Positions 11,076 through 42,912 of a stretch of DNA of 42,912 nt are shown here, in pieces. The DNA is from Patescibacteria group bacterium (GTDB taxonomy: Bacteria; Patescibacteriota; UBA1384; CAILIB01). The position numbers were made by a program, and so were the translations under genes. Position 1 is the stretch's first letter; every line of letters begins with the position of its first letter. Below the pieces are notes generated by a model that ran no database searches, had not been told where the DNA came from, and saw nothing but the letters and a program-made list of their open reading frames with translations. The stretch spans positions 1 through 42,912 of the forward strand of contig JAYRWT010000072.1 in NCBI GenBank assembly GCA_041917855.1. Direction: 5' to 3'.

Positions 11076-11096
11076 AGAATCCCCTCCAGAGTTCCC

Positions 11097-16039: not shown

Positions 16040-16047
16040 TCATCCTC

Positions 16048-16425: not shown

Positions 16426-16492
16426 GGTAATTTTTATTAGTTGTAATGCTAGTTCCAGTATACGCCGTTGGCCTGAAGCTGCTCCAGTGGCC

Positions 16493-17833: not shown

Positions 17834-17843
17834 GGGTAATAAG

Positions 17844-19679: not shown

Positions 19680-19745
19680 AAAAATTACGCTTAATGAAAT
19701 TAGCAAAAGGAGCCTCTTACCAAAGAGGTCTCAGTCTGTAATTCC

Positions 19746-20186: not shown

Positions 20187-20224
20187 GGAAAGTATTTTGT
20201 TGGCCCTATTATACCACCTTTTGC

Positions 20225-20443: not shown

Positions 20444-20453
20444 ATACCCTCCT

Positions 20454-25737: not shown

Positions 25738-25920
25738 ATGGCTTTGCTTACTTCTAGCTATACCAATCAATGCCCTGAAGGACTTACTAAGTCCAGGCAA
25801 ATTCCAGGTTGGAACCGCCTTTTGTGACCCTACAACTCGATCGCTTAGTACCTCCACCCCGCCCTAACAGCCAATACAATAGGAAGGGTGCAATTAAAGC
25901 TCCTACAGGTTAAAAAGATT

Positions 25921-25948
25921 TTGATATGGGTCACATATCTGCTACGAT
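25921..25948 (+). promoter_or_regulatory. Candidate promoter of leader RNA copy 2
   Basis: TTGATA (25921-25926), a 16-nt spacer, then TACGAT (25943-25948). The predicted start near 25955 coincides with the first base of the outer stem. Confidence 0.4.
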
Positions 25949-25953
25949 ACAAG

Positions 25954-26090
25954 TGTCTGGATCAACAACTTGTTGTAAACACCTACCCATCTTTTGGGAG
26001 TGGTTGTAGCCAAAAACGGGCAACCACTCAACAAGCATCAGGCTACAACCTGTTGTTGGTCCAGACAACCTAGAGTGGTTGTCCTTTTTA
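25954..26090 (+). ncRNA. Structured cis-regulatory leader RNA, copy 2
   Basis: Outer stem 25954-25969/26052-26067 (16 bp). Inner hairpin 25998-26006/26021-26029. Terminator 26064-26070/26077-26083 plus TTTTT. The alternative pairing 26018-26029/26073-26084 is also possible. Confidence 0.6.
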
Positions 26091-26119
26091 TTTATTCGTA
26101 ACCAAAGAAAGGAGCCTAT

Positions 26120-26578
26120 ATGGCAGATGGAGAAAAGAAACCAATTTACAAGAAGTGGTGGTTCTGGGTACTGGCCGTGCTAATACTCGGAGCGATCGCT
26201 TCAAGCAGTAACAAAAGCAATACCGAAACGGTGACCAGCACCGGAGAGAAGACCACTACCAGTTCGGGTGAGCAGACGGCTGCTTCTACCGGGACCCCAG
26301 TACCAGCTAAGGAGAAGATAACTATCTCCAACAGCGCCTACAAGGACAAGGGGTACGGCATGTATACCGTCGTCGGAGAAGCCACCAATAACGACTCGAC
26401 CAAGCATACTATGACACTGAAGGCCACCTTCTACGACGCGAATGGGAAGATCCTCGGCACCGCCTCGGGAGCCCTTAACGACCTGGAAGCCGGCCAGACC
26501 AAGACATTTGAACTGCTGACTACCGATACTGTCACTGGTTACAAGGACATGAAGGTCCAGGTAGACAGCCTGTTCTAG
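26120..26578 (+). CDS. FxLYD-domain membrane-anchored protein
   Basis: N-terminal TM helix, S/T-rich linker, and a C-terminal beta-rich domain with TFYDANGKILG...GQTKTFEL, typical of FxLYD domains. AGGAG lies 7 nt upstream of the ATG. Confidence 0.75.
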   Translation: MADGEKKPIYKKWWFWVLAVLILGAIASSSNKSNTETVTSTGEKTTTSSGEQTAASTGTPVPAKEKITISNSAYKDKGYGMYTVVGEATNNDSTKHTMTLKATFYDANGKILGTASGALNDLEAGQTKTFELLTTDTVTGYKDMKVQVDSLF

Positions 26579-26585
26579 TCAAACG

Positions 26586-26617
26586 AAAAAGAGCCATTTG
26601 AATGCAGGCTCTTTTTC
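26586..26617. terminator. Bidirectional rho-independent terminator
   Basis: AAAAAGAGCC pairs with GGCTCTTTTT around a 12-nt loop, between convergent genes. Confidence 0.75.
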
Positions 26618-26621
26618 GTGC

Positions 26622-26837
26622 TCAGATCCGTGGGAACGGCAGACTTACCATCAGGTTGTTGACCTTCTGGAAAAGACGCTCCGTCTCGTAGGCCGGTCCC
26701 GCAACTTGCTCGGGGAACTCCTGGTCCCACGGCAGTTCGGATCTGAGCACTGCCAACCTTTTTCCCATGTACTCCAGGTTCGCTACCACGTCCTCCAGGC
26801 AGTGCCTGAGGGTCTCGATATCCGGTTCTTTTTCCAT
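26622..26837 (-). CDS. Hypothetical small protein (71 aa)
   Basis: AAAGGAGAG lies upstream of the ATG. It sits downstream of terL on the same strand. Confidence 0.5.
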   Translation of the reverse strand: MEKEPDIETLRHCLEDVVANLEYMGKRLAVLRSELPWDQEFPEQVAGPAYETERLFQKVNNLMVSLPFPRI

Positions 26838-26919
26838 ATCTCTCCTTTCGCTGGTTAATTATTGATCACTACAACAGGTGCCAGGAAGGGCTGGTGAAGT
26901 CCAGCCCTGTCCCGGTTTC

Positions 26920-28497
26920 CTAGCCAATCATCCTATTCCAGGTCCTGCCCGATCGCCGCCTGCCAAAGGTGAGCGGCCTATGGTCGATTCCGAAGCTCAG
27001 GCGGTCGTCACGGTCTGCCCAATCCTCGTCATCGTCGTCCCGATCGAAGGGTACGAAGAAGATGCCGAAGCTACTGCCCTTGTTCTCCTCGATCGCCTTA
27101 AGCACCAGGATGGCGAAGGCATCGGCCAGGTCGTCGTGCTTTTCCACCCCGAAGCCGGTCAGCTGCTCGATCAGGCGCTCGCAGCCGGTCCTCGGGAACT
27201 TTACCCCTCCCGACTGGATGAGCGAGGTGGTAAGAGCCAGTCGGCTCCGCTTGTCGCTTGTTCCCACCTGCACCCCTTCGGCGTCGAAGTCCTCGAGCTC
27301 AAGCTGCTGGATGAAGGCCTTCTGGTAGCCTACCTCCTCAATGTACAGCTTGGTCTTCTCGCCCCTGCCCAAGGTCACCGATACCGCCTTCGCCCGCTTG
27401 AGTGTCTCCGGAAAGTCCATCCGCTCGTTCACCGGATTGGGGACGATGTAGATTACCTGCTCCGTGCCATACCCGAAGGTGTGCCCCGACACCATCGCCG
27501 TGTAGTCCGCCGACGCCTTCTCGGAGATCGCAAGGTCGATACCCGTGGCCGAGTAGTTCAAAGTAACGCCGGAGCCTGGAGCTGGAAGCTCGTCGTAGTA
27601 CTGTATCCACTCGGGTCTGATTACCCGGTCCTCATCGGCGATGATCCGAAGCAAATACTCCCGCTGCCACGCCGACTCCGAGCCGGTGTTCCGGCGCATC
27701 TCGTCAATCAGGTCCTGGGTTCCGTACTTTCCCGGCCAGAGGCTGATCCCGTCGTTATCCAGTAGCGGATAGCCTTTGAACACACCGTCCATCAGGTTTT
27801 CCTCGATCCGCTTGCGAAGCCGCATCAGCAAGGAATCCTCATGCAGCAAATTTCCAACAATAACTCTTTTCGTATTCTGGTCGCCGCAGGGAATCACCTC
27901 TCCCGTTAACCAGTCATAGGTCTTGTTCCTGCCCTCTCTCGTCTTTACCGACTGCAGGTCCTCCACGTCATCGCAGATGATCAAATCAGGCCTATACTGC
28001 CCGTGTTTGATTCCCCGAATGCTCGTTTCCGAAGATGCGGCCATGATCTTTGCCCCGAACTTCGGCAGTACCAAGGCGGTCACGCCCCACTCGTCTGACT
28101 GGTACTCAAACGGACCCAGGTCGGCCCTTAAGAGTTCGTTCGTTTCCAATTCTCTTTTCAAATTGACCAGGTGCTGCCTGGCCTGCTGCTGGGTCTGGGA
28201 CAATATTAGTACGAATTTTTTCCCTTGCTTGCCCGTAACCGCCCAGATGGGGTAGCTGAGGGTGAATATCGTGCTTTTGGCCGATCCTCGGAAAGCCACA
28301 ATCACGGCAGTTTTCAGGTCCCGGTTTTCCGTAATCTCGAACATCTCCCGTTGGAACGGGGCGGTCTCATGGGTGACGTACTGGGAGAAGTAGAGGTGGA
28401 AGAACCAGTAATGGCTCTGGGCCGCTACCTCTTTCCTGACTTTGCGCTGGGTCCTGATCTGCTCCAAGGCCGGTGCGGGCAATAGTGTGTTTTCCAT
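26920..28497 (-). CDS. Phage terminase large subunit (TerL)
   Basis: Walker A-like FRGSAKST, Walker B LIICDDVED, and a C-terminal RNaseH-like nuclease region with DDLADAF. Confidence 0.85.
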   Translation of the reverse strand: MENTLLPAPALEQIRTQRKVRKEVAAQSHYWFFHLYFSQYVTHETAPFQREMFEITENRDLKTAVIVAFRGSAKSTIFTLSYPIWAVTGKQGKKFVLILSQTQQQARQHLVNLKRELETNELLRADLGPFEYQSDEWGVTALVLPKFGAKIMAASSETSIRGIKHGQYRPDLIICDDVEDLQSVKTREGRNKTYDWLTGEVIPCGDQNTKRVIVGNLLHEDSLLMRLRKRIEENLMDGVFKGYPLLDNDGISLWPGKYGTQDLIDEMRRNTGSESAWQREYLLRIIADEDRVIRPEWIQYYDELPAPGSGVTLNYSATGIDLAISEKASADYTAMVSGHTFGYGTEQVIYIVPNPVNERMDFPETLKRAKAVSVTLGRGEKTKLYIEEVGYQKAFIQQLELEDFDAEGVQVGTSDKRSRLALTTSLIQSGGVKFPRTGCERLIEQLTGFGVEKHDDLADAFAILVLKAIEENKGSSFGIFFVPFDRDDDDEDWADRDDRLSFGIDHRPLTFGRRRSGRTWNRMIG

Positions 28498-28501
28498 AGG
28501 G

Positions 28502-28945
28502 TTATTCGTTACTAATAGATGGTTCGTTAGTTAAGCTCGCAAGCCGCAATGCCTGCATCACGGTTTCCGCCTGCTCAGGAGTCAGTTCTTCGGGAACCGA
28601 CTTCAGGTGGGCGTTCACCTCCACCTTGGTGGCGTAGGCCGGGTGGTGGTGCTTGAGCCAGAAGATGATGGCGGTCAGGTTCTTGTCCCGGATCGCCGCC
28701 ATCAGCTGAGACTCGGCCATGTCGTTTACAAGCAAGTTTCCATCGAGCAACGCTTCGTCCACCTTCTCTCCAAACTCCTTGTCTTCCTTCTTCCAGCGGT
28801 AAAACGAGGTTCTGCCGATCCCCACTTTCTCGCAGGCCACCTGGACTATGGGAGTCTTTTTTAATTGCTCCAACAGGGCCGCTTTGGCAGTTTCCTGCTT
28901 TTGCTCCACCACGCCCTTCGGTGGGACTTCGCGGGAAGTATTCAT
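28502..28945 (-). CDS. Terminase small subunit-like HTH protein B
   Basis: HTH IVQVACEKVGIGRTSFYRWKKEDKEFGEKV. It lies directly upstream of terL, and its start overlaps the upstream stop (ATGA). Confidence 0.6.
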   Translation of the reverse strand: MNTSREVPPKGVVEQKQETAKAALLEQLKKTPIVQVACEKVGIGRTSFYRWKKEDKEFGEKVDEALLDGNLLVNDMAESQLMAAIRDKNLTAIIFWLKHHHPAYATKVEVNAHLKSVPEELTPEQAETVMQALRLASLTNEPSISNE

Positions 28946-29724
28946 ACTCCCTCCTTCCTGGCCTTGATCCCGGTGGCCTTCTCAAACCGGTCTATAATTA
29001 CCCGGCAGTATCCCGGGTCAAGCTCGGCCATCAGGCACTTTCGCTTGGTATCCTCACAGGCGATAAGAGTTGAGCCTGAGCCGCCGAAGCAGTCGTACAC
29101 CGTGGCTCCCACCTTGGTGCTGTTCAAGATCAGTCTCCTGAGAAGTCCTACCGGCTTGATGGTCGGATGGACCTTGTTCTTGGTAGGCTTCGGATAAATC
29201 AGGATCGATTTGTCCTTGGCTTTCCGGAATTCGTGGGTCCCGATCCAGCCGTAGGCCAGGAGCTCGTGCTGCGGTAAGTAGTCGAGCCTACCCACTACTG
29301 CTTGCGTCTTAAGCCAGATCAAAAGCTGGGCGAAGTGGCACCCCGCGTCCAGCATTCCGTCCCTCAGGGCGAACAGCATCTTGTCCGAGTTGAAGACGTA
29401 GATACTGTTCTTCTTGGAGAGGTAAGGCTTGACCGCTTCCAGCCAGTCTTTGGTGAATTTGCGGTAGTCGGCGTCGCTCTGGAGGTGGTCGCCGGCGATT
29501 ACTTTGTGGGAACTGGTGTGATCCCCGAAGCCTTTCTTTCCCTCCACCACGGCAACTCCGTAGGGAGGGTCTGAGAGGATAAGGTCGACTTTGGCATCGC
29601 CAACCAGTTTCGCTATTACGGCAGGATCAGTCGCGTCGCCGCAGATAAGCCTGTGCACACCAAGTGTGAACACATCACCCGGGCTGATTAACAATTTTTC
29701 CTTGGTTTGGGTTAGAGTTTTCAT
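28942..29724 (-). CDS. Beta-class DNA methyltransferase (N6-adenine or N4-cytosine)
   Basis: LSDPPYGV motif IV precedes the C-terminal DCFGGSGSTLIACE motif I. Confidence 0.88.
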   Translation of the reverse strand: MKTLTQTKEKLLISPGDVFTLGVHRLICGDATDPAVIAKLVGDAKVDLILSDPPYGVAVVEGKKGFGDHTSSHKVIAGDHLQSDADYRKFTKDWLEAVKPYLSKKNSIYVFNSDKMLFALRDGMLDAGCHFAQLLIWLKTQAVVGRLDYLPQHELLAYGWIGTHEFRKAKDKSILIYPKPTKNKVHPTIKPVGLLRRLILNSTKVGATVYDCFGGSGSTLIACEDTKRKCLMAELDPGYCRVIIDRFEKATGIKARKEGV

Positions 29725-29729
29725 AGTAG

Positions 29730-31025
29730 TTACTTACTGATCAGCTTTGGCTTAATACCAGTCGCTTCCTCAAAACGCTCCAAAATGACCTGGCAGAATA
29801 CAGGATCGAGCTCGCAGGTGTAGCACGTCCGCTTCATCTGCTCGCAGGCAATCAGGGTGGAGCCTGATCCGGCAAAGAGGTCGAGTACGATGTCGCCCAC
29901 CTTGGTGCATCTGCGGAGCGGCTTCTCATGGAGCGTCACCGGTTTTTCCGTGGGGTGGATATACTCCTGCCCTGGCAGCCGCTTCACCAGCCAGATATTC
30001 AAGAGGTCCAGGATGTCGTCGATAGCCCGGTTTCCTGTGTCGACCTCCTTGTTCAGGATCTCTGTTAAGTTCTGGGCCTTATTCGAGAGAAATGGTTTAC
30101 CACGGGTTCCGTACACCACCGGCTCGTAGAGTTTGTTGAATGCCACCTGTGGGGTCATATTGAGATTATTTTTCACCCAGAGGCAGACCCGCTTGCTCGA
30201 TATGCCGAGTTCTTCATAGAGGCCCTGCACCATGCCGATATACGTCTCGTCACAGTAGTAGAAGTAGTGAGCATCGGCTTCCGATACCGCCAGGGCGTTC
30301 TCAATAGTTTTCTTCAGAAACTCTCGATACTCTGCAGAAGTCTTTTTGTCCTGCTCCTGGCCGCCGTACTTGCCGGAGGTGGAAATGCCCTTCGAATAGT
30401 CCAGCTTGATGTTGTACGGGGGGTCGGAGTAGACCATGCTGGCTTTCTTGCCGCCCATCAGGCGCTCTATTTGCCCTAAGTCTGTGGAGTCGCCGCAGAG
30501 CAAAAAGTGTGAACCGAGAGCATAGAGGTCGCCGAGCTTCACGGTCGGGCTCTTGATCTCCTTCAGCTTTTTCTCCAAATCAAATCCGTCCGCTTCCGTC
30601 TCAAGCTGGTCCCAAATGGGGGCCAGGTCCGAGTCGTCGAAGCCCACATCTAAAAGAAGGTTGATGTCGAATTCTTTCAGAAGCTCGAAGTCCCACTGGC
30701 CGGTGTTTCGGTTGAGCCGCAGGTTCAGCTCCCTCTCCTTTTCCAGGTCTGGAATTTTCACGTAGACGACTGGCACTTCTGAATATCCCAACTCCTTGGC
30801 CACGAAGAGCCGGAAGTGGCCGCCAATCACGACGTTTTCCCTGCCTGGTGCACGGTTCACGATTACCGGATCGATGATGCCGAAGCGGGTAATGCTTTCC
30901 TTAAGCTGGCTGATGGACGCCTGGTCCCACTTCCTGGGGTTGTACTCCGCACTCCTTAGCTCACCGATCTTCACATAGCTGACGGAGAGCCTATCGTCAG
31001 CTGCCGATTGCAAGGTCTTTTCCAT
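29730..31025 (-). CDS. ParB-like N-terminal domain fused to a beta-class DNA methyltransferase (B)
   Basis: YNPRKW, GGHFRL, SDPPYNIKLDY and DLFAGSGSTLIACE. The ATG at 31025 follows AGGAAAGGA; the track start at 31061 lies inside the upstream terminator. Confidence 0.9.
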   Translation of the reverse strand: MEKTLQSAADDRLSVSYVKIGELRSAEYNPRKWDQASISQLKESITRFGIIDPVIVNRAPGRENVVIGGHFRLFVAKELGYSEVPVVYVKIPDLEKERELNLRLNRNTGQWDFELLKEFDINLLLDVGFDDSDLAPIWDQLETEADGFDLEKKLKEIKSPTVKLGDLYALGSHFLLCGDSTDLGQIERLMGGKKASMVYSDPPYNIKLDYSKGISTSGKYGGQEQDKKTSAEYREFLKKTIENALAVSEADAHYFYYCDETYIGMVQGLYEELGISSKRVCLWVKNNLNMTPQVAFNKLYEPVVYGTRGKPFLSNKAQNLTEILNKEVDTGNRAIDDILDLLNIWLVKRLPGQEYIHPTEKPVTLHEKPLRRCTKVGDIVLDLFAGSGSTLIACEQMKRTCYTCELDPVFCQVILERFEEATGIKPKLISK

Positions 31026-31050
31026 ATATTTCCTTTCCTGGTTACTTACT

Positions 31051-31077
31051 AAAAAACTCACCTTCTTATGAGGTGAG
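31051..31077 (-). terminator. Rho-independent terminator (minus strand)
   Basis: CTCACCT (31057-31063) pairs with AGGTGAG (31071-31077). The A6 run at 31051-31056 is the T tract on the minus strand. Confidence 0.65.
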
Positions 31078-31112
31078 CCTAACCTAGGTGGTTTGGGGAA
31101 TAACAGGAACTT

Positions 31113-31754
31113 TTAGGGAATCTTGGGGAATTCTTTCAGTTGGACTGTGTCCTTCAGGTATACCCTGCCTCCCCGACAACGGAGCTTTCCCTGTAACTTC
31201 GTGGTCTTCTTAATGGCCTTTAAGGATTCGTGTAATAGGATGGTGGCCTCGGCTGAGTTCGGCTTGATTCCCAGGTAACCAAGCGCCTCTTCACGCGGCA
31301 TTGAACCGCTAGCTACCAAATGGGCGAAGAACTGCCCGTAGGTAGGGTTAGAGAAGTAGAAATCCTTCCCATTTATCGAGCCTTCTGCAGTTACCGGAGA
31401 GTACGTATTAGCCGGAAGCTGAGGCAGCAGGATCTGTCCGCTTGGCTGGACCGCCACTCGTGGTCCCACTTCTTGGCCCGGCGGGATGGCCGGCAACTGC
31501 TCCAGGACGATCCGCATGGTGGGAAGCGTAACCCGCAAGGCTTCGGACAGCTGGACGGCGATCCGCTCCTGCCACTGGCGCATGGCCTCAACCATACGCA
31601 TGATCGGCTCGGCAACGATCCTGGCCCAATCCACCATCTTGATGATCTGCTGTGCCCACCCCTCAATCCGCCGGTGCAGAATCACCAGGTGCTCTATGTC
31701 CCTTGGGGAAAGAACGTAGCGGTCAGTCCGGACTGTTAGGGATGAGGTAGTCAT
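31113..31754 (-). CDS. Hypothetical protein (213 aa), divergent from the repressor gene
   Basis: Long ORF with no recognised motif. It appears to be leaderless, with TACCAT ending 6 nt before the ATG. Confidence 0.6.
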   Translation of the reverse strand: MTTSSLTVRTDRYVLSPRDIEHLVILHRRIEGWAQQIIKMVDWARIVAEPIMRMVEAMRQWQERIAVQLSEALRVTLPTMRIVLEQLPAIPPGQEVGPRVAVQPSGQILLPQLPANTYSPVTAEGSINGKDFYFSNPTYGQFFAHLVASGSMPREEALGYLGIKPNSAEATILLHESLKAIKKTTKLQGKLRCRGGRVYLKDTVQLKEFPKIP

Positions 31755-31760
31755 ACCGCT

Positions 31761-31789
31761 ATGGTACTACAATACGGCCCTGCTGTAAA
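31761..31789 (-). promoter_or_regulatory. Leftward promoter of the divergent switch region (leaderless)
   Basis: On the minus strand: TTTACA (31789-31784), a 17-nt spacer, then TACCAT (31766-31761), then 6 nt to the ATG at 31754. Confidence 0.5.
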
Positions 31790-31800
31790 CGACTTTTACA
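31784..31800. promoter_or_regulatory. Palindromic operator candidate
   Basis: TGTAAA-cgact-TTTACA. Its left arm is the -35 of the leftward promoter. Confidence 0.5.
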
Positions 31801-31807
31801 CACGTTA

Positions 31808-31836
31808 TTCACAAGTTGTACACACCCTGCTATAGT
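31808..31836 (+). promoter_or_regulatory. Rightward promoter of the repressor-CBASS operon (leaderless)
   Basis: TTCACA (31808-31813), a 17-nt spacer, then TATAGT (31831-31836), then 6 nt to the ATG at 31843, with no Shine-Dalgarno sequence. Confidence 0.55.
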
Positions 31837-31842
31837 TAGCTC

Positions 31843-32484
31843 ATGAACACCATCCAAGACCGCCTCCTCTCCCTTGCGAGCCAGCACGACCTCAGCAAAC
31901 TGAGCCTTAGACAGATCGCCAAGATGGCAGGCGTCGAGCACGCCCAGACCGTCAAATACCACCTGAAAAAGCTGGTGGACGCTGGGAAGATCCGAAGCGT
32001 AGGCGGTGCGATCAAGGTGGTAAGCCGAGGGGTTGAGGGAAGCCTCCTTTCCCTACCAATACTTGGGAGCGCTAACTGCGGGACTGCTGCACGATTCGCT
32101 GAAGAGCAGGTAGAAGGCTTCATCCAGGTATCCTCCAGGCTGCTGCCGTCCAGCCGAGACCTGTTCGTAGTCCGGGCCGTCGGCAATTCCATGAACCAGG
32201 CAGATATTTCCGGTCGCACGATTGAGGACGGCGACTACGTGGTGGTGAAGAATACCACCGAGGCTCCCTGCAATGGTGACTATGTCCTCTCGATCATTGG
32301 CGGCTGCGCCAACATAAAGCGGTTTTACCAGGATACCACCCACGAAACCGTCCTGCTCATCTCAGAATCAACTGAGAAGGAGCTACACCCACCTATCGCC
32401 ATCCACCCCGAGGACGATTATATAGTGAACGGCAGGGTCGTGAATGTGATCAAGATGCAGGCAGTGGCCGGAGGGGAAGCATGA
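31843..32484 (+). CDS. LexA/CI-type repressor (winged-helix DNA-binding domain plus S24 self-cleaving peptidase)
   Basis: N-terminal LexA-type wHTH (LSLRQIAKMAGVEHAQTVKYHLKKLVDAGKI), a linker (PILGSANCGTAARFAEE), the Ser nucleophile motif GNSM and the Lys motif ANIKRF. Confidence 0.85.
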   Translation: MNTIQDRLLSLASQHDLSKLSLRQIAKMAGVEHAQTVKYHLKKLVDAGKIRSVGGAIKVVSRGVEGSLLSLPILGSANCGTAARFAEEQVEGFIQVSSRLLPSSRDLFVVRAVGNSMNQADISGRTIEDGDYVVVKNTTEAPCNGDYVLSIIGGCANIKRFYQDTTHETVLLISESTEKELHPPIAIHPEDDYIVNGRVVNVIKMQAVAGGEA

Positions 32485-33407
32485 CCGAGGCCGAATTTGA
32501 AGCATTGCTCAGGAATTGGTCAGGACCCTCAAGCGACACCGAGCAGGAGAAGCAGGAAAACGCCGAACGTCTTATCGGGGAAGCCATCCGTGAGCATGAA
32601 GGATTGGCTGCAAGGAACGTCCAGGTATTTGCCCAAGGCTCATACCGCAACAATACCAACGTAAGGCAGGACAGCGACGTCGACATCTGTGTCTGCCTGT
32701 ACGATTCGTTCTTTTACGACCACTCCTCCCTGCCCGCATTCAGCACCAGCGAGGCAGGCATATCGGACAATCCCTACCCTTATAACCAGTTCAGGACGGA
32801 CGTACATACCGCACTTATCGACAAGTTCGGCAGACCATCAGTAAAGAACGGGAACAAGGCGTTCGACGTCAAGGAATCCTCAACTCGGATCGCCGCGGAC
32901 GTCGTACCCTGCTTCGAGTACCGCGAGTACACCTTCCGCGATTATAACGGCGTTTATTCTTACGAATCTGGGACCCAGCTCATCACGGGTGAAGGGCAGG
33001 TCATCATCAACTGGCCTGAGCACCATTACCGGAACGGCGTTGCGAAGAACAACGTCACGGGAAAGCGTTTCAAGTCCGTGGTCCGGATTTTGAAGCGACT
33101 GCGCTACCGCATGGCAGACCAGGGAGTATACGCTGCGGACCGGGTTCCTTCCTACCTGGTTGAGTGCCTTGTCTGGAATGTATCTGACGATCTTTTCAAT
33201 GACACCTACCTATCAAAAGACGTTTACAACGTGCTTGCTATTCTAAAGGTCTTCTTGGCAAACCCATACAATTATCCTCACGTAAACAACTTCATGGAGG
33301 TGAATGGCCGCAAGCGCCTCTTCGACCCAGGCCAATCGTGGACACGGGAAGACGCCCTCGCATTCATAAATGCCGCTTACGCCGAATTTGCTAGGATGGC
33401 GCCATGA
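32481..33407 (+). CDS. cdnE: CD-NTase (SMODS nucleotidyltransferase), CdnE-like
   Basis: QGSYRNNTNVRQDSDVDICV (GS...DxD; Asp codons at 32676-32684), a third acidic motif AADVVPCFEY, and later NWPEHHYRNGVAKN and PSYLVECLVWNV, as recalled for clade E cyclases. The start overlaps the repressor stop (ATGA) after GGAGGGGA. Confidence 0.8.
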   Translation: MTEAEFEALLRNWSGPSSDTEQEKQENAERLIGEAIREHEGLAARNVQVFAQGSYRNNTNVRQDSDVDICVCLYDSFFYDHSSLPAFSTSEAGISDNPYPYNQFRTDVHTALIDKFGRPSVKNGNKAFDVKESSTRIAADVVPCFEYREYTFRDYNGVYSYESGTQLITGEGQVIINWPEHHYRNGVAKNNVTGKRFKSVVRILKRLRYRMADQGVYAADRVPSYLVECLVWNVSDDLFNDTYLSKDVYNVLAILKVFLANPYNYPHVNNFMEVNGRKRLFDPGQSWTREDALAFINAAYAEFARMAP

Positions 33408-34033
33408 AGAGCAGCCCAATAACACCCCTTGCCCAAAAGGCCTCGCTATTCTTTTTTGCCCTTTTGTGGGCGGCATTCGTTATCTATAAAAACGAAAGCC
33501 TTACCTTCAACGCTGATTCTCTTATGCAGCTACCTGCCGCCTACGGCGTCTATGTTATATGTACAGAAATCTTCAAAAGGTGGCTGTGGCGCTTGTCCTT
33601 CCTGCGAGGGTGGATAGTTAGGATTCCCAATATCCAGGGAACCTGGTCCGGAACCCTCCAGACCACCTGGAAAGACGCGGACGGCAATACCCCAGGTCCT
33701 ATACCTATTACATTTGCCGTTCGACAAACCTTGGACTCGGTAAGCTGCCGTCTCTATACCCAGGAATCGGGCAGCTACAGCACGTCAGCCCAGATCGAAG
33801 AGGATGACGCGAGTGGCATTTTCCGACTGCATTTCTCCTACCTCAATACCCCGAAGTCATCCGTGCAGCATCGGAGCGAGATCCATGCGGGTGCCGCAGA
33901 CCTGCAGATAATCGAGAAGCCGTCCAAACGTCTCGCTGGCAATTACTGGACGAGCCGAAAGTCCACCGGGGATATGGAGCTGACTTTCAAGTCATCTGAG
34001 ATCGCTCAGCAATTTGAAGATGAATTAGCATAA
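33404..34033 (+). CDS. cap15: Cap15-type (S-2TMbeta) CBASS effector: two N-terminal TM helices plus a beta-rich C-terminal domain
   Basis: The TM helices are ASLFFFALLWAAFVIY and LPAAYGVYVICTEIF. The C-terminal region has GTWSGTL...AGNYWTSRKSTGDMELTF. The start overlaps the cyclase stop (ATGA). Confidence 0.7.
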   Translation: MKSSPITPLAQKASLFFFALLWAAFVIYKNESLTFNADSLMQLPAAYGVYVICTEIFKRWLWRLSFLRGWIVRIPNIQGTWSGTLQTTWKDADGNTPGPIPITFAVRQTLDSVSCRLYTQESGSYSTSAQIEEDDASGIFRLHFSYLNTPKSSVQHRSEIHAGAADLQIIEKPSKRLAGNYWTSRKSTGDMELTFKSSEIAQQFEDELA

Positions 34034-34148
34034 CGCCTTACCGGTCCTAATTAATGCTAGAGCCGCCTGAAAGCGACTTTACTTCTATCCCCGAACCAAG
34101 CTACAACAGAGTACGACCTGGAGGCCAGGTTCCAGCCTAGTAGCTTAT

Positions 34149-34394
34149 ATGGATCACAAAACAAGAGAAATCCACCAAAAAATAATCCGCGTCACCCATT
34201 TCCTGCAGATTGCGGAGCGGCATATGTCTAAACTCTACGAGCTCGTGGGAACTGAAGCAATGGAAAGCCACTTGGAGCTGCTGGGAAAAATCACCGACAT
34301 CTACGAGGATGAGCTGTCAGCTCTCATTACCGGTACTAGGCCTTCGACTTCACCGCCTTCTTCTGAGCCATCGCCGCTAACTCTTCCTCAATGA
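34149..34394 (+). CDS. Possible small helical protein (81 aa)
   Basis: Open frame only. There is no RBS, and its last 59 nt overlap the convergent gene. Confidence 0.3.
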   Translation: MDHKTREIHQKIIRVTHFLQIAERHMSKLYELVGTEAMESHLELLGKITDIYEDELSALITGTRPSTSPPSSEPSPLTLPQ

Positions 34395-34896
34395 CGGCTG
34401 CAAAATTGGGATTCTCTTTTCTCAGAAATACCAGTTCCCCACTCTTGGGGATTATTCGGGCTTTGAGCTTTCCCTGCCTCACCAGCTTCTTGAGCGTTAC
34501 CGTCCGGATGTCTAGCTTCCAGGCCAGAGTGGAGCCGAGGATATGCTCCTTGTTGTCTTTATCTTTTATGACCGAGGCCGGCACTATCCTCTTGTCGATC
34601 GCTTCCTGGCAAGCCAGGCATTTCATTCCGTGCTTGTCGTACCACATCGGCTGGTCTTGAGAGCTGTGGCAAAGAGCACATGTCCGGCCCTCGCCCTGCA
34701 TTTGAAATCCATTGGGATGGTCTTTTAACTTAGCTTTTCGACGCTGTTCTTCTTGGTCTATTTCAATGAAAACCTCGAACAGCCTTACTAACTTCTCCGC
34801 TGATTCCCTGGCCTCTGAGTCACTCTTGAATTCTATTCCTTTCTCCTTGGCAATTTCTTTGAATTCTTCCATCAGCTCGTCGCTTATCCTGGCCAT
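34336..34896 (-). CDS. Zinc-ribbon protein with a C-terminal HTH-like region (186 aa)
   Basis: The ATG at 34896 follows GAAAGGAG. It has CALC...CLAC four-Cys spacing. The track start at 34953 adds 19 residues without an RBS. Confidence 0.65.
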   Translation of the reverse strand: MARISDELMEEFKEIAKEKGIEFKSDSEARESAEKLVRLFEVFIEIDQEEQRRKAKLKDHPNGFQMQGEGRTCALCHSSQDQPMWYDKHGMKCLACQEAIDKRIVPASVIKDKDNKEHILGSTLAWKLDIRTVTLKKLVRQGKLKARIIPKSGELVFLRKENPNFAAVIEEELAAMAQKKAVKSKA

Positions 34897-35101
34897 GCTA
34901 CTCCTTTCTGTATTAGGTATTTGATGGCTTGAAGATAGCAGAAATCGGAACACTTCTTTTTTTATAGTGTTCCGCGTGTTCCATTTTTTACTGCCGAAAG
35001 GTTCCAGAAACGACCGTTTCCCATCCGAAATCCCCCTATTCTATAGGGGTACCCAAACCGTCCCGAAAGTGGCGAGACCGCGATGCTCTACCAAAGAAAA
35101 G

Positions 35102-35130
35102 GCCCGACTTTCCGTCCGGGCTTTTTCTTT
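35102..35130 (+). terminator. Orphan terminator-like hairpin
   Basis: GCCCGAC-tttcc-GTCCGGGC (one bulge), followed by TTTTTCTTTT. No annotated gene ends here on either strand. Confidence 0.5.
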
Positions 35131-35259
35131 TGACACAATTATCAAATACATAAATTAAAATATAGTTCACACATATCAAAATCTCATTGACATTTTGCTT
35201 ATTTTCAGGTAAAAGGAGGAAGTCTTCGCTGAGGAGACGAAATCTAAAAACGGGAGAAG

Positions 35260-36276
35260 GTGCTACCTACTACTATGTCCGCTAAAAGTGATTCCTATAC
35301 TTCGCGGGAGACATGGTTACAGTACCGTGCATCTCCCTCTGATAAGCTGCGCAACGAAATTGCCCAGCAAAACTACCGCTTGGTTCCTCTCGTTCTGAGT
35401 CGCGCTTTTAGTCAAATCCCTATTGAGTGGCAAGAAGATTTGCTGCAAGAAGGATGGATTGGACTACTACGTGCGGTGGAACGATATGATTGTGACGATG
35501 AGAGCCAGGCGTCTTTTTCGACCTTTGCTTTCTACGTGATTCGTCAAAGTATGGGCCGCTACCTTGATAACACAAGAAGCACCATACGCCTACCTGTTCA
35601 TATCAGTGATCAGATTCGCCGAGTCGAAAGACTTCGGACAATCTATATCCATCAAAATGGTTCGGTTCCCAGTTTGGAGGAATTATCAGAGTTCACAGGG
35701 ATCCCGGAACTTAAACTCTTTGAGTTATCCCTGGCAGCAGATACTAGTAATCCTGGCTCACTTGAGGCCCCCATGGGCAGCGAGGACTCAGTCACACTCT
35801 ACGACCTACTGCAGAATCCTGATGCCACCGACCCGCTAACAGAACTACTCAGCAAAGGTGCGCAACACCTCCCTGACGACGTAAGCCTGGAAGCACTCTC
35901 GATGGTTCTCCGGGAGCTATCTACCGAAGAGTACGAAATCCTCATCCGCCGCGCCAATGAAGAAACTCTTGCTTTGATTGGACAACGATTTGGTTACACC
36001 CGTGAGTACATACGACAAAAAGAGAGTAGAGCCCTAGCCTATGTCCGTGGCCGCTTTGGCTACCGACTCATTGGTAAGGAAATCGTAAAGTGGGAGGAAG
36101 TTGCTCCTGTTGTGGTAAAAATCACACAGGAAACAAAGCCACCCACTAGATCTGAGTACTCAAAATCAAGCAATGAAAAGGTAGGACAACCAAAAAATCG
36201 CGTCCAACCAAAACCAAAGCGAGGATTGCGCTCAGAACTACGACGAGCCCTCGACAGGCTCAAACACAGGAAATGA
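35260..36276 (+). CDS. Sigma-70 family RNA polymerase sigma factor B
   Basis: Region 2 (EGWIGLLRAVERYD...FSTFAFYVIRQSMGRYL), region 3 (IRLPVHISDQIRRV) and the region 4 HTH (LALIGQRFGYTREYIRQKESRALAYVR), plus a K/P-rich tail. The start is either the GTG at 35260 or the ATG at 35275. Confidence 0.88.
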   Translation: MLPTTMSAKSDSYTSRETWLQYRASPSDKLRNEIAQQNYRLVPLVLSRAFSQIPIEWQEDLLQEGWIGLLRAVERYDCDDESQASFSTFAFYVIRQSMGRYLDNTRSTIRLPVHISDQIRRVERLRTIYIHQNGSVPSLEELSEFTGIPELKLFELSLAADTSNPGSLEAPMGSEDSVTLYDLLQNPDATDPLTELLSKGAQHLPDDVSLEALSMVLRELSTEEYEILIRRANEETLALIGQRFGYTREYIRQKESRALAYVRGRFGYRLIGKEIVKWEEVAPVVVKITQETKPPTRSEYSKSSNEKVGQPKNRVQPKPKRGLRSELRRALDRLKHRK

Positions 36277-36277
36277 A

Positions 36278-37285
36278 ATGACGATGATTACGATACAAGG
36301 AGCCAGCCTGCTTAAGCAGCATGGGGCGACCGTATATTCTTTCAAAATTAGCGCTGCAGAGTTCCTAGGCCGAGGAAATGTTGAGCGGTTGAGTGAAGGA
36401 AATCGGGAGGATGCCATACAACGGGACCTCATTGAGAACCATGCACTCAACATTGCTGCTGCGATGCTTGACCCCTCGGTCCTTTGGCCAGATTCTCTGG
36501 TCATTGCACTGAGTCACGAGCCCAAGGTTAAGAATGGCCAACTCAGCCTTCCCGACGTCTACTCATTCTTGGTAGATGATGGCCAACATCGCTTGTATGG
36601 CCTACGCATCATACAAGAAATGGGAGACAAGATCCCTGATATTGAGTTCCAGGTGTTCGCCACTTTTGGGCTTAGTGTCGAGGAGCGAGTTCAACTCTTC
36701 AAACTGCAGACTAAGCGTAAGGCCGTCACGCGAGACTTCAGTCTTGCGCTGTCGGACAAAGCGAATAGTCACAAGAATGAAGCTGAGGCTCGTGCGTACG
36801 CGGTTGTCATGATACTGGCCAAAAATAGTGATTCACCGCTACAAAGCCACATTGCCCTGCCTGGTCGGTCTAAGCAGATCGGTCAGCAGACCTGCTGGCT
36901 CAGCACCTCGGTTGTTGTTACCATGCTCCGCCCCATGTTTGCCCCAAAGGCACCCTGGACAGAGCTCAGTAATGATGAAGCAGCCAGGGCTCTCATGTGC
37001 TACTTCGACGAGCTCCTCAACATGTGGTCAAACGCATGGAGAAACCCCGACGAGTATGTACTATGTGGCAACCGGGCCATATGCGCACTCATCACAATGC
37101 TCACAGCCAAGCGTTCGCGTATTCATATTCGGTCATTCCGAGACGAAGCCGCGATACGCCAATTCGCTCGACTCTTTTCAGGGTTCAAGTGGAGCAAAAG
37201 CGTACGACAGAGAAACACCACACGCCAGATGGAGAACGCACTGTTCACTTTTCTGGAGGGATCGATCGAACGAGGTCAATCCTGA
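36278..37285 (+). CDS. DGQHR-domain protein (DndB-like, ParB/Srx superfamily)
   Basis: Exact DGQHR motif (FLVDDGQHRLYGL). The ATG lies 1 nt after the sigma factor stop. Confidence 0.8.
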   Translation: MTMITIQGASLLKQHGATVYSFKISAAEFLGRGNVERLSEGNREDAIQRDLIENHALNIAAAMLDPSVLWPDSLVIALSHEPKVKNGQLSLPDVYSFLVDDGQHRLYGLRIIQEMGDKIPDIEFQVFATFGLSVEERVQLFKLQTKRKAVTRDFSLALSDKANSHKNEAEARAYAVVMILAKNSDSPLQSHIALPGRSKQIGQQTCWLSTSVVVTMLRPMFAPKAPWTELSNDEAARALMCYFDELLNMWSNAWRNPDEYVLCGNRAICALITMLTAKRSRIHIRSFRDEAAIRQFARLFSGFKWSKSVRQRNTTRQMENALFTFLEGSIERGQS

Positions 37286-37289
37286 ACGG

Positions 37290-37328
37290 GAAGGAGGCTT
37301 ATCACACCGACAAGCCTCCTTCTTTTTG
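37290..37328 (+). terminator. Rho-independent terminator
   Basis: An 11-bp stem, GAAGGAGGCTT/AAGCCTCCTTC, followed by TTTTT. Confidence 0.85.
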
Positions 37329-37420
37329 TATACAGAGTTAACCCTAGAAGCTTACCAATTCATAACCGAGATCTGAATCTGCAGAACACTCGCTATACCG
37401 GTCCAGATACAGTAGACCAC

Positions 37421-37446
37421 GGCGATTAGCTCCTTGTGGCTGCCAG
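37421..37446. repeat. 26-bp perfect direct repeat, left copy (intergenic)
   Basis: GGCGATTAGCTCCTTGTGGCTGCCAG is identical to 38299-38324. Confidence 0.9.
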
Positions 37447-37531
37447 CTTTTTCCTTTTTCCCTTTCAAATCTGCTAAAGTGACTCCAGCATCACATATTG
37501 TGCTGCCGGACATTGAATCCAGGAGGAAGAC

Positions 37532-37945
37532 ATGCCAGAATACAGTCCTGATCAACAATCATTCACTGAAAGAGTCCTTGCCTATATGAGAGCAGAAATG
37601 AATGAGATGGCAGCAGGCGGACTCTTATTCACCCTAGTTGATGCCAAGGAACTTGCTCCAGGCTTAATCGCCACAATCGACTCAGATGGTGACAGCACCA
37701 TTTGCTACGACCCCACGCTGTACGACCTCATCCCAGCATTAGCCGGACTAAAGGACGACCCTAATCGTCACCCACGAACTAGTGCCTTTGGCATTGCCAT
37801 GCTCGAGCCAGGTGAACTGGGGAAAAAGACAGACAGTCCGATTACCCTGCTACGCGAGCTCGCCGAAAAGTATATTGTGAGCCTCAACCCTGGCTCACAC
37901 ACAATCGAGTTCTTCCCTGAACCGAAGTCCCTTGCCCTAGAGTAA
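37532..37945 (+). CDS. Hypothetical protein (137 aa)
   Basis: AGGAGGA lies 6 nt upstream of the ATG. No motif was recognised. Confidence 0.6.
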   Translation: MPEYSPDQQSFTERVLAYMRAEMNEMAAGGLLFTLVDAKELAPGLIATIDSDGDSTICYDPTLYDLIPALAGLKDDPNRHPRTSAFGIAMLEPGELGKKTDSPITLLRELAEKYIVSLNPGSHTIEFFPEPKSLALE

Positions 37946-37989
37946 GTTTTTGCTATCATGCTCAAGCGACTCGCTCGCAGCATAAAGCA

Positions 37990-38139
37990 ATGAAACTAGG
38001 CAAAATATTCTCCATCGCTCTCTTGATTACCATCACTGGAGTACTACTCGCTTCATGCGAACCCCCCATTAAGGGTGAAAGTGAACAGCTCCAGCAACAG
38101 AGAAGTGAAAACCAAAGAAAACTCCTCGACGACAACTAG
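37990..38139 (+). CDS. Small lipoprotein (49 aa, not in the ORF track)
   Basis: Reads MKLGKIFSIALLITITGVLLASC... with an LLASC lipobox. It is followed by the terminator at 38157-38189. Confidence 0.5.
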   Translation: MKLGKIFSIALLITITGVLLASCEPPIKGESEQLQQQRSENQRKLLDDN

Positions 38140-38156
38140 CAAGGTTGTCAAAAAGC

Positions 38157-38189
38157 AACCCCCGAACCTTTAGTGGTACGGGGGTTTTT
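38157..38189. terminator. Bidirectional rho-independent terminator
   Basis: AACCCCCG pairs with CGGGGGTT, with an A run upstream and TTT downstream, between convergent genes. Confidence 0.75.
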
Positions 38190-38220
38190 CTAAGAGTCTG
38201 GCTACCAGCTAAGCAAGTAG

Positions 38221-39999
38221 TTACTCCCCTACACTCTCTGGCTTCTCCTCGTCTGAGTGCTGCTGCGCCTCCCATAAATCGGCGTATTTGCCCTTCTTGG
38301 CGATTAGCTCCTTGTGGCTGCCAGATTCTACTACAGCCCCTTTTTCAAGTACGAATATGCGATCGCTCTCTACGATTGTGGACAGCCGGTGGGCAATAGC
38401 AATAGTCGTGCGGCCTTCTGCGGCTTGCTTGAGGGCGCCAACGATTTCTTTTTCAGTATGCGTGTCCAGGCTGCTGGTAGCTTCATCAAACACCAGAATA
38501 CGTGGCTCACGTACAACGGCACGGGCAATAGCCACACGCTGACGCTCTCCACCCGATAGCTTCACGCCACGTTCACCAACAATAGTTTTTAGACCATCAG
38601 GCAAACGCTCAAGCAATCCATCGAGCTGGGCAATAGTTGCAGCACGCTCTACCTGCTTGTCGGTAGCATTTGGGTCGCCAAAGCGAATGTTATCGGCAAT
38701 TGTACCGTGGAAGAGTACCGGGTCTTGGGGCACAACGGCGAGCAAGCTACGCAGCTGATCAGAAGAAATGTCACTGACCGATACGTCATCAATGAGTACG
38801 CTACCCGCGTTTGGATAGTACAGCCTAAAGAGCAGCTTAAGCACAGTACTTTTACCGGCACCTGAACCACCAACAAAGGCAACGCGCTCACCTGGTTTAA
38901 TCGCCAGATCAAGGCCGTTCAGGATTGGTCGTTCATCGTAGCTGAATGAAACGTCCTTAAAGATTACGCCTCCCTTTGGCTTTTCAATGGTTACCGGGTG
39001 TACTGGATCTTCAATGGTAAGGGGCTCTTTAATGAGCTGGTCAGCACCTGCTAAATCGGTCAGACCATCCTTAAGCATGCGGTAAATAGCGCCAAAGAAG
39101 CCGAGTGGAGCCGCAATGCGGATGATGTAGCCAGACAGTGCAACTAGATCACCTGAGCTCAAACTACCGGCAGCAGCTTCTCTAATAGCAAACCAGAGCA
39201 CCGCCACGGTACCGGCCAGTAGAATCAGGGTTTGGCCTGCTAGCACCACACTAAACAACTGGTTACTCTTTACGTTTGCACTCTCGCGCTTAGCCAGGAG
39301 CGGCTCGTACTGAGCAATCTGCTGCTCTTCGGCGTGAAAGAGCTTAACCACATCGATTGAGCCAAGGGCAGTAACCTCCTGGGCGCCAACCGATTCGTCA
39401 GTTTCAATCGCCATCAAGCGCCACTTCTGGCGCTTCTCGGTGGCATACACCATAAAGGCAATGTAGAGAACAATAGTACCAACAATCAGTAATGCGTACA
39501 TGCCTCCAAATACACGCGTAAGGATTACGGCGGTGGCGACCAACTCAATTACTGTGGGTAGCATGCTGATCACCAGCATGTCCAAAATAAAGGTTACGGA
39601 ACGGCTTGCACGGGTAATGCGCTGGGCAACCGCACCAATACGCTGATCATTATGAAAAGAAACGGGCAAACGTAGCAGGTGACCAAATACCTGACGGGAC
39701 ATACTCCGGGCAACTCCCATTTCTACCTTGGCAAAGGTAACATCACGCACTAAATCTCCAACCAGAATACTCAGGCGGAAGATAGCCAGTGTGGTCAGTG
39801 CGCTCAGCGCAACAGCAATACCACCTCCAGCAGGGCCAAGCGCATCTACAATGCGACCCAGCCAGATAGGTTCAAATACGGAAGCGACACGGGCAACAAT
39901 CAGAGCGATCAGCGCGAGAGCAGTGAGTCCCCACAGTCCTTTTAGGTGCTGTGTGACAAAGCGAATGGGCGCGCCCGTTGGTTTTTCGGGATTAATCAT
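38221..39999 (-). CDS. ABC exporter, fused permease and ATPase (MsbA/ABCB-type)
   Basis: Six-TM N-terminal half, Walker A GGSGAGKST, signature LSGGERQR and Walker B ILVFDEATS. Confidence 0.92.
   Translation of the reverse strand: MINPEKPTGAPIRFVTQHLKGLWGLTALALIALIVARVASVFEPIWLGRIVDALGPAGGGIAVALSALTTLAIFRLSILVGDLVRDVTFAKVEMGVARSMSRQVFGHLLRLPVSFHNDQRIGAVAQRITRASRSVTFILDMLVISMLPTVIELVATAVILTRVFGGMYALLIVGTIVLYIAFMVYATEKRQKWRLMAIETDESVGAQEVTALGSIDVVKLFHAEEQQIAQYEPLLAKRESANVKSNQLFSVVLAGQTLILLAGTVAVLWFAIREAAAGSLSSGDLVALSGYIIRIAAPLGFFGAIYRMLKDGLTDLAGADQLIKEPLTIEDPVHPVTIEKPKGGVIFKDVSFSYDERPILNGLDLAIKPGERVAFVGGSGAGKSTVLKLLFRLYYPNAGSVLIDDVSVSDISSDQLRSLLAVVPQDPVLFHGTIADNIRFGDPNATDKQVERAATIAQLDGLLERLPDGLKTIVGERGVKLSGGERQRVAIARAVVREPRILVFDEATSSLDTHTEKEIVGALKQAAEGRTTIAIAHRLSTIVESDRIFVLEKGAVVESGSHKELIAKKGKYADLWEAQQHSDEEKPESVGE
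38299..38324. repeat. 26-bp perfect direct repeat, right copy (inside the ABC exporter gene)
   Basis: Identical to 37421-37446. It encodes GSHKELIA on the minus strand. Confidence 0.9.
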
Positions 40000-40066
40000 G
40001 GGTAGGTTTAGGAATCAGGTTACAGTCTAGCGGAAAGTACTCACAAAACCTACCACCCGGCAGTGC

Positions 40067-41266: not shown

Positions 41267-41275
41267 AGTGTTTGA

Positions 41276-41722: not shown

Positions 41723-41818
41723 ACGTAAGGTTACTGATTTCTTTTTTCAGCATAGCAAATTTGGGAATTTGCCAAGCCCTGCCGTATACTGAGGCTAATC
41801 AAATAGCTCACCCTTTAT

Positions 41819-42883: not shown

Positions 42884-42912
42884 ATGGCCCTCCCCTCACT
42901 CGCCAAACTAGC

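Follow-up and report, generated by a model that had tools for sequence, protein, structure and literature searches.

Operon organisation

The window analysed here (the whole stretch of 42,912 nucleotides, contig JAYRWT010000072.1 from a Patescibacteria group bacterium) carries three consecutive open reading frames (ORFs) on its + strand, which the ORF listing places at 31843-32484 (213 aa), 32481-33407 (308 aa) and 33404-34033 (209 aa). ATGA start/stop overlaps at 32481-32484 and 33404-33407 chain all three together, exactly where an earlier reading of this DNA (the original prediction) had located them. The first is a predicted LexA-type repressor gene with an S24 peptidase domain (Pfam, solved LexA structures and an AlphaFold2 model), the second encodes a clade-E CD-NTase (cGAS/DncV-like nucleotidyltransferase), that is, a CdnE-like cyclase (PADLOC, CdnE structures in the PDB, motifs), and the third encodes a Cap15-type effector (Pfam Cap15_CD_rec, PADLOC 2TM, PDB 7n34). 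Judged from its sequence, the locus is a minimal Type I CBASS (an antiphage system that signals through cyclic oligonucleotides), CdnE plus Cap15, with a regulator gene in front. Because the ORFs have family or profile matches and sequence matches to solved structures, we regard all three as genuine genes and not chance reading frames.

Overlaps of the ATGA kind are frequent in bacterial operons, and so they indicate an operon rather than translational coupling per se. The coupling originally proposed is to be read accordingly: the overlaps and the operon are real, but they are no proof of coupling, since the cyclase gene has its own Shine-Dalgarno (SD) sequence (GGAGG, within the 3' end of the S24 gene), as does the Cap15 gene (AGGA). 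There is no + strand promoter-like site inside the operon, as the sole one in the scanned region (31600-34400) lies at 31808-31836. No canonical intrinsic terminator was found 3' of Cap15, the scan giving only two weak candidates within the gene, and RNA folding of the region that follows (34020-34150) gave z = -0.56. A single-promoter, three-gene immune operon on integrated mobile DNA is, we suggest, the best explanation of the locus.

Searches of the neighbouring genes with Pfam, PADLOC and PHROG found no Cap2/Cap3, HORMA/TRIP13 or other ancillary Cap gene adjoining the CdnE-Cap15 pair, which makes the CBASS core Type I, in agreement with the minimal architecture first proposed. The operon and its neighbouring genes also contain no WYL domain, no helix-turn-helix (HTH) repressor with a separate metallopeptidase, and no kinase with a repressor.

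Cyclase and effector

ORF2 matches the PADLOC CBASS cyclase model (8.5e-106), and all five of its PDB matches are CdnE-type enzymes: 7x4f ('cyclic dipyrimidine nucleotide synthase', 4e-69), 7x4a (ClCdnE), 7x4c (EfCdnE), 6e0m and 6e0k. The active-site residues are in place (G52-S53, the D64/D66/D68 cluster and D140), corresponding to the GS..DxD..D pattern on which the CdnE-like assignment had first been made. We assign ORF2 as a predicted clade-E CD-NTase (CdnE) with intact active-site motifs, the clade being that of its closest PDB relatives.

ORF3 matches Pfam Cap15_CD_rec (PF18153; 3.6e-22, 79.4 bits against a cutoff of 31.2), the PADLOC 2TM effector model (6.3e-63; alignment to the 2TM profiles starts at residue 14) and the Cap15 structure 7n34 (1e-6, across residues 62-192), and its C-terminal cyclic-nucleotide-receptor β-barrel comprises residues 73-194. 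The first transmembrane segment (residues ~13-31) is clearly hydrophobic; the second (~43-60) falls under the hydropathy threshold used, and the Pfam Cap15_TM score, 15.6 bits, is short of the 28.2 cutoff. The protein is thus predicted to be a Cap15-type membrane effector. Of the two transmembrane helices and β-rich domain previously described for it, the receptor domain and the first helix are borne out and the second helix is weaker. Profile searches accordingly place ORF2 in the CD-NTase family and ORF3 in an effector family.

The LexA-like repressor

ORF1 scores over the cutoff of Pfam Peptidase_S24 (3.3e-16) and below that of the TIGR00498 lexA model (2.4e-23; 82.8 bits against 110.95), and is on these scores a LexA-like repressor and no LexA equivalog. 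Its sequence aligns with solved LexA (4e-8) in such a way that Cys79-Gly80 (32077-32082, + strand), the putative cleavage site, falls on A84-G85 of the Escherichia coli protein, while the residues of the catalytic dyad, Ser116 (32188-32190, + strand; in a GNSM motif) and Lys159 (32317-32319, + strand; in an NIKR/KRF motif), fall on Ser119 and Lys156. C79, G80, S116 and K159 are invariant among 90 homologues. The predicted Cys-Gly site is the same as the cleavage site of UmuD, Cys24-Gly25.

An AlphaFold2 model built on the 90 homologues (pLDDT 86, pTM 0.71) has three helices and a β-hairpin wing followed by a β-rich C-terminal domain, with a low-confidence stretch (residues 81-83) directly after Cys79-Gly80. 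Its top structural matches are full-length LexA proteins (3jso, E 4e-12; 3k2z, 1jhh and 8trg, all ~1e-11 to 1e-12), to which it is ~25% identical in the structural alignments, and its C-terminal domain superposes on that of LexA with a TM-score of 0.87 and deviations of 2.1-2.3 Å. The repressors of phages lambda and 186 are weaker matches, through the S24 domain only. No XRE-family HTH model occurs among the Pfam matches listed to E=1, the weak N-terminal matches being mostly to winged-helix types; the PHROG matches are named 'transcriptional repressor' and 'CI-like repressor'. From the model, the LexA alignment and the four invariant residues, the protein looks like a cleavage-competent autoproteolytic repressor of the LexA type (winged helix plus S24). 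Both parts of this architecture, the winged helix and the Ser/Lys dyad, had been recognised in the original prediction, and the structural comparison, with LexA ranking top, agrees.

Promoter and putative operator

A sigma-70-type promoter precedes the S24 gene (10/12 matches, 17-nt spacer). Its -35 hexamer, TTCACA, lies at 31808-31813 and its extended -10 element, TGcTATAGT, at 31828-31836 (TATAGT, 31831-31836), both on the + strand and both held in position in homologues. Upstream is an 18-bp palindrome, CTGTAAACGACTTTTACA (31783-31800; CTGTAAA-N5-TTTACA), centred ~51.5 bp 5' of the ATG and presumed transcription start site. With 0-1 mismatch allowed it occurs just once in the 42.9-kb window, weaker matches being no commoner than chance, and its spacing is conserved in homologues; we regard it as the putative operator of the S24 protein. 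A weak minus-strand promoter-like match (31789-31761) overlaps it. The -10 box ends 6 nt ahead of the S24 ATG, an in-frame TAG two codons 5' of that ATG excludes a longer ORF, and the gene lacks an upstream SD sequence; together these observations imply that the repressor mRNA should be leaderless.

Comparison of upstream regions from homologues of 57-80% identity (the window, L006, L007, L008, L093 and L094) revealed a conserved block consisting of palindrome, 7 nt, -35, 17 nt, CTGnTAnnnT, 6 nt and ATG, which is held in five of the six; the sixth (L094) has the same promoter elements with a 19-nt insertion after the -10. The DNA flanking this block cannot be aligned across the six. We also scanned 77 non-redundant genes of the wider family for a -10 box (at least 5/6 matches), with shuffled controls. 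Such a box ends 4-9 nt before the start in 31 of them, against ~7 (maximum 15) in the shuffles, and in 18 of the 31 the distance is exactly 6 nt; only six of the 77 have an SD-like motif. The leaderless transcript proposed from the window alone is thus matched by promoter geometry conserved in homologues.

In a second subclade (L010, L013, L015, L017, L023 and L028) the palindrome is a different one, TGTCAAC-N-GTTGACA, and its right arm is the -35 element itself, which is the geometry expected for autorepression. Because the window palindrome lies upstream of the -35, repression is not the sole reading there, and the sign of regulation is less certain in the window clade than in the second subclade. 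The protein bound at -51.5 might activate its own promoter, so that self-cleavage during the SOS response turns CBASS down, which could avoid autoimmune killing during DNA repair or allow the element to escape. The position of the operator, upstream of the -35 and not over it, would suit such a switch, as would the imperfect -35 hexamers (TTCACA, TTGATT) and the reported negative correlation of defence expression with recA in E. coli. The overlap of palindrome and -35 in the sister subclade is, however, typical of repression, LexA-family proteins are classically repressors, and the known regulators CapW, CapH/CapP and CapK/CapS are all repressors relieved by DNA damage. A site centred at -51.5 is also located between the positions that class I and class II activators usually occupy, and on the helix's opposite face. 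We consider activation distinctly unlikely, and return below to autorepression as the preferred reading.

A half-site-like direct repeat (31789-31803 / 31811-31825) was considered as a second operator and rejected as a family feature: it is kept in L093 and not in the other homologues. Many S24 homologues of 40-50% identity have DnaA-box-like motifs, TGTGGATAA / TTATCCACA, shortly 5' of the gene (L040-L043, L045, L048, L052, L053, L056-L058, L061 and L069-L071), which may serve this subclade as operators or else be genuine DnaA boxes.

The repressor family and its cargo

The genes that follow the S24 gene differ among its close homologues. In the window the cargo is CdnE and Cap15, joined by 4-nt overlaps. 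The homologue of 76% identity (P0123) is followed by a SAVED gene (4-nt overlap), a SMODS gene, a 216-aa ORF, an EcoRI-type methylase and GmrSD; that of 80% identity (P0122 / L008) by an overlapping metallo-β-lactamase-fold gene of PDC-M48B/LmuA-like type (1.5e-44), a candidate defence gene; that of 71% identity (P0125 / L006) by a small ORF and then a type I HsdM (5e-104); and that of 72% identity (P0124 / L093) by a 280-aa protein with a faint DUF5677 match. The upstream neighbours vary as well.

A further 84 loci were examined, 80 from metagenomes and 4 from viruses, whose homologues are 34-50% identical. In about two-thirds a same-strand gene starts -11 to +300 nt from the S24 stop, often within a few nt, and the downstream genes form 69 clusters. 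Scanned with Pfam and PADLOC, 82 downstream proteins included methylases (8 C5, 4 N4/N6, 4 Eco57I-type, 2 type I-like N6, 1 Dam-type and 1 MT-A70), toxins (4 MazF/PemK), CBASS-type proteins (3 SMODS cyclases, 1 patatin and 1 Cap15), 2 AAA_15/21 ATPases and 1 TdeIII endonuclease. Several downstream genes in the surveyed loci belong to no known family.

The S24-cyclase pairing does not stand alone, the survey showing it to be one instance of a recurrent pattern. S24 genes adjoin CBASS genes at six loci, with four effector/ancillary architectures: the window; P0123; L016 (S24, CD-NTase, Cap15; cyclase 27% identical to that of the window); L010 (S24 divergent from CdnE and Cap15; cyclase 41% identical); L021 (S24, patatin, SMODS-AGS_C); and L062 (S24, SMODS, ThiF/E1-like). 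The closest relatives of the window cyclase, five at 35-38% and three at 52-54% (L001-L005 and the P0002, P0007 and P0021 contigs), all keep the CdnE-Cap15 pair, and none of the eight has an S24 gene beside it. The regulator is, then, a modular addition, and because S24 homologues vary their cargo while cyclase relatives lack the S24 gene, the association is tied to the regulator family and not to a CBASS lineage. The regulator together with its promoter and operator looks like a portable head for exchangeable defence cargo. At one locus (L095, 1458-9604) a 53%-identical CdnE-Cap15 pair sits between hsdS and HSDR_N/hsdR of a type I restriction-modification (R-M) operon with a HicAB pair upstream, a nested defence island that has no S24 regulator.

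These data also bear on whether the S24 protein is simply the host LexA, or a paralogue serving the SOS regulon, whose position beside CBASS has no regulatory meaning. Many homologues of 40-50% identity are indeed named 'LexA', and some lie in conserved, housekeeping-looking contexts (for example, with MscL). Against an incidental adjacency stand the location of the S24 gene within strain-variable inserted DNA, its 4-nt overlap with the cyclase gene in an operon free of internal + strand promoter-like sites, the six independent S24-CBASS adjacencies involving unrelated CBASS types, and a palindrome that occurs nowhere else in the window. We judge it very improbable.

The four homologues directly 5' of MazF/PemK (L030 500-1572, L053 2139-3298, L068 6001-7128 and L087 897-1999; spaced -4 to 9 nt from the toxin gene, three of them overlapping it by 4 nt) occupy the position of an antitoxin. 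They are longer (239-248 aa against a family median of 213), with ~30 extra C-terminal residues; the tail common to L030 and L053 is …QNASAQDILKDLGPISKKEVEYYENL. No MazE-like ORF was seen between S24 and MazF in the four loci, although no search was aimed at MazE. Antitoxin-like action is plausible for these variants, and the tailed protein could, to judge by its sequence, be a self-cleaving LexA-like antitoxin for MazF. Transferred to the window, the same idea would have the S24 protein neutralise the cyclase or effector post-translationally until cleavage frees them. The window protein, however, is of the median length (213 aa) and without the tail, CBASS is controlled through signal production and needs no antitoxin, and the cargo of the family is too diverse for a common protein-protein interface, so that we regard this as extremely improbable for the window operon.

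Several S24 homologues carry source names from Patescibacteria, and the family apparently comes mainly from this group (the candidate phyla radiation, CPR). In viruses it is rare: 4 IMG/VR loci, as against over 515 metagenomic ones, and 7 of 50,697 GenBank phage records, these at no more than 31% identity. As CPR phages are poorly sampled, the rarity is weak evidence.

Phage-derived surroundings

The operon stands in the phage-derived part (24451-37448; identified with Pfam, PHROGs and sister contigs) of a strain-variable region. This part contains a serine integrase, a Sie-like gene, TerL, TerS, two DNA methyltransferases (MTases), a sigma factor and a DndB/DpdB-like gene. On the left side of the operon stand the serine integrase (24451-25857), the Sie-like gene, TerL (PHROG 9.5e-79), TerS, an N4/N6 MTase, a ParB-MTase and a divergent 213-aa ORF; to the right are a 205-aa ORF, the sigma factor and the DndB/DpdB-like gene. 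The match of sister contigs to the window, at 99% identity, is confined to 37448-42912; farther on these contigs carry tRNA-Glu and tRNA-Lys (L099 14481-14680), and everything left of 37448 is therefore strain-variable DNA beside a tRNA cluster. Position 37448 is the right junction of the variable DNA, and its left end is beyond the window. No att-like direct repeats of at least 10 nt were found between the integrase side and the right end; none are expected with a serine integrase. The prophage-like setting originally described is thus phage-derived, integrated and strain-variable DNA. Pfam and PHROG searches saw no capsid, portal or tail genes in the phage-derived stretch, of which 24451-31061 represents a satellite-like island or else what is left of a prophage.

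This setting raises the possibility, already contained in the comparison with lambda cI-rexAB made in the original prediction, that the S24 protein is the lysogeny repressor of the element and CBASS a co-transcribed moron whose dosage follows the repressor. Much of the comparison holds. The phage-derived variable DNA includes an integrase, TerS/TerL and a Sie-like gene, the leaderless repressor mRNA recalls lambda PRM-cI, an abortive-infection module follows, the S24 gene has a divergent ORF upstream, the PHROG matches are to repressors of this sort, and an operator 5' of the -35 resembles cI at OR2. The parts that do not hold are the more specific ones. The fold is a LexA-type winged helix, to which the lambda and 186 repressors are the weaker structural matches; the 42.9 kb contain a single palindrome and no multiple operators; close homologues have different neighbours on both sides, different cargo and no conserved divergent partner; capsid and tail genes of the element are absent from the window; and the family is rare in viral collections (the weak evidence noted above). 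Because of the winged helix, the single operator and the variable contexts, we disfavour a lysogeny repressor and consider it unlikely. We prefer the reading in which the S24 protein is a dedicated regulator of the operon.

The divergent ORF (31113-31754, - strand; 213 aa, no family assigned) may share the regulatory region, and its membership in the system is doubtful. It has no Pfam, PADLOC, PHROG or phage matches and no relative in L001-L092, and the called neighbours of close S24 homologues differ from it.

Proposed mechanism

We suggest that the LexA-like protein dimerises through its S24 domain and that its winged helices bind CTGTAAA-N5-TTTACA just 5' of the -35, autoregulating the whole operon, most likely by repression, so that the toxic CBASS would be held low. 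DNA damage or phage replication would generate RecA filaments on single-stranded DNA (ssDNA; RecA*), which would prompt the Ser116/Lys159 dyad to cut its own chain at Cys79-Gly80; the DNA-binding domain would be parted from the dimerisation domain and the operon derepressed. Infection-triggered CdnE would then make a cyclic oligonucleotide, probably containing pyrimidine by analogy with the nearest solved CdnE relatives, which make pyrimidine-containing dinucleotides. Binding of the nucleotide to the Cap15 β-barrel would lead to membrane disruption and abortive infection, the presumed anti-phage phenotype. We give a probability of roughly 0.7 to the S24 protein being a dedicated regulator of this operon; that derepression is specifically RecA-dependent has about an even chance.

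A number of observations count against this proposal. The repressor misses the TIGR00498 LexA cutoff, as described above. The window palindrome occupies -60 to -43, upstream of the -35 and not over the core promoter. The 86 loci surveyed are mostly metagenomic, some are near-duplicates, and their gene calls are heuristic. Some S24 homologues precede non-defence genes (MscL, glycosyltransferase, AdoHcyase and P-type ATPase), and with housekeeping-type cargo such as MscL or a glycosyltransferase in the family, not every member regulates defence. In one survey of E. coli, defence systems were negatively correlated with recA expression (bioRxiv 10.64898/2025.12.14.694197).

Relation to known systems

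The CBASS core is that of known Type I CdnE-Cap15 systems, having the same cyclase and effector identity, gene order, motifs and two-gene core and no ancillary genes; compared with its closest CdnE-Cap15 relatives, the window operon alone has a regulator gene joined at the front. The immune-operon regulators described are CapW/BrxR (PMC9122588, PMC9122601), CapH/CapP (bioRxiv 10.1101/2022.04.27.489752) and CapK/CapS (PMC13373217), the last an addition to those named in the original prediction, which had observed that none is LexA-like; the papers on all three make no mention of a LexA or S24-type regulator. Like these regulators, the S24 protein takes the head position in operons of many unrelated defence systems (PMC9122588; bioRxiv 10.1101/2022.04.27.489752; PMC13373217), and it would be expected to share with them a palindromic operator at the promoter and a response to DNA damage or ssDNA. 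This likeness is confined to function: the S24 protein belongs to an unrelated family and has no WYL domain, separate peptidase or kinase, its sensor would be host RecA*, its output would be self-cleavage by a Ser/Lys dyad within one polypeptide, and its family appears concentrated in Patescibacteria-type metagenomic contigs.

With LexA and UmuD the protein shares the Ser/Lys dyad and the cleavage-site loop, and with LexA the winged helix plus S24 architecture and, putatively, an autoregulated gene with a palindromic box. It differs from LexA in scoring below the equivalog cutoff, in residing on mobile DNA at the head of an immune operon, in having a box (CTGTAAA-N5-TTTACA) seen once in the window, and in its leaderless mRNA. 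The likeness to lambda PRM-cI-rexA-rexB lies in a leaderless S24-repressor mRNA joined to an abortive-infection module on integrated phage-derived DNA; here, however, there is a winged helix in place of the lambda-type HTH and a single operator in place of the OR/OL arrays, no evidence links the S24 protein to control of the element's life cycle, and cargo and context vary among close homologues.

Some defence genes have been reported within the host LexA regulon, which is distinct from an operon-borne LexA-like regulator. We found no S24/LexA-like regulator of CBASS or other defence operons in the searchable full-text literature, subscription-only papers and supplementary tables lying outside its scope. 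The CBASS core and the repressor are each of ordinary kinds; it is their combination, and its recurrence across defence systems, that is new as far as we can tell. We infer that the locus represents DNA-damage-linked transcriptional control of immune operons by a new class of regulator. With odds a little short of even, we advance the broader proposal that LexA/S24 autoproteases form a fourth class of cargo-independent immune-operon regulators beside CapW/BrxR, CapH/CapP and CapK/CapS, widespread in Patescibacteria/CPR, which would connect RecA* to CBASS (of at least four architectures), R-M and other defences as a portable head with exchanged cargo, its tailed versions being self-cleaving MazF antitoxins.

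How abortive-infection systems stay silent and then switch on is an active question. Three DNA-damage-responsive classes of regulator have been described since 2022, none acting by the classical RecA-LexA route. If our proposal is true, a mobile defence cassette can have the SOS switch built in as a copy of its own, in the form of a one-protein sensor that is simple to test, and the locus affords an early view of defence regulation in the largely uncultivated Patescibacteria. New defence genes might also be sought by means of the conserved regulator gene and the variable cargo behind it.

Other features of the window

The 205-aa ORF to the right of the operon (34336-34953, - strand), which is convergent with Cap15, carries zinc-ribbon-like motifs (CxxC…CxxC) and is without matches in Pfam, PADLOC and PHROG. 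The DndB/DpdB-like gene (DGQHR-type; 36278-37285), directly after the sigma gene, matches Pfam DndB below the cutoff (4e-6) and PADLOC DpdB (1.2e-10); further dnd or dpd genes were not seen in the window. The window has no Rfam matches and no tRNA genes, and an exact cluster look-up of its proteins gave no names. The nearest proteins to a flanking glutamate dehydrogenase are named Candidatus Saccharimonadales (61-65%), and the host probably belongs to the Saccharimonadia (Patescibacteria).

Part of the gene set is present twice: a sigma-70 family gene occurs at 1991-3457 and again at 35260-36276, and a ParB_N-N6_N4 methylase fusion at 7698-9026 and again at 29730-31061. This suggests that two related mobile elements lie in tandem or are nested; there is also a helicase with a KorB-like C-terminus (3638-6298). 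Also within the strain-variable DNA is a metal-resistance block (13904-24026). It encodes two P-type ATPases for heavy metals, one of 711 aa and one of 1190 aa with HMA domains, together with a DsbD_2-cupredoxin-HMA protein of 620 aa. In the stretch 9001-12000, the only ORF scanned (9283-10506, 407 aa) has no Pfam match; the stretch is low in GC (38-42% against ~50-55% elsewhere) and is probably separately acquired DNA.

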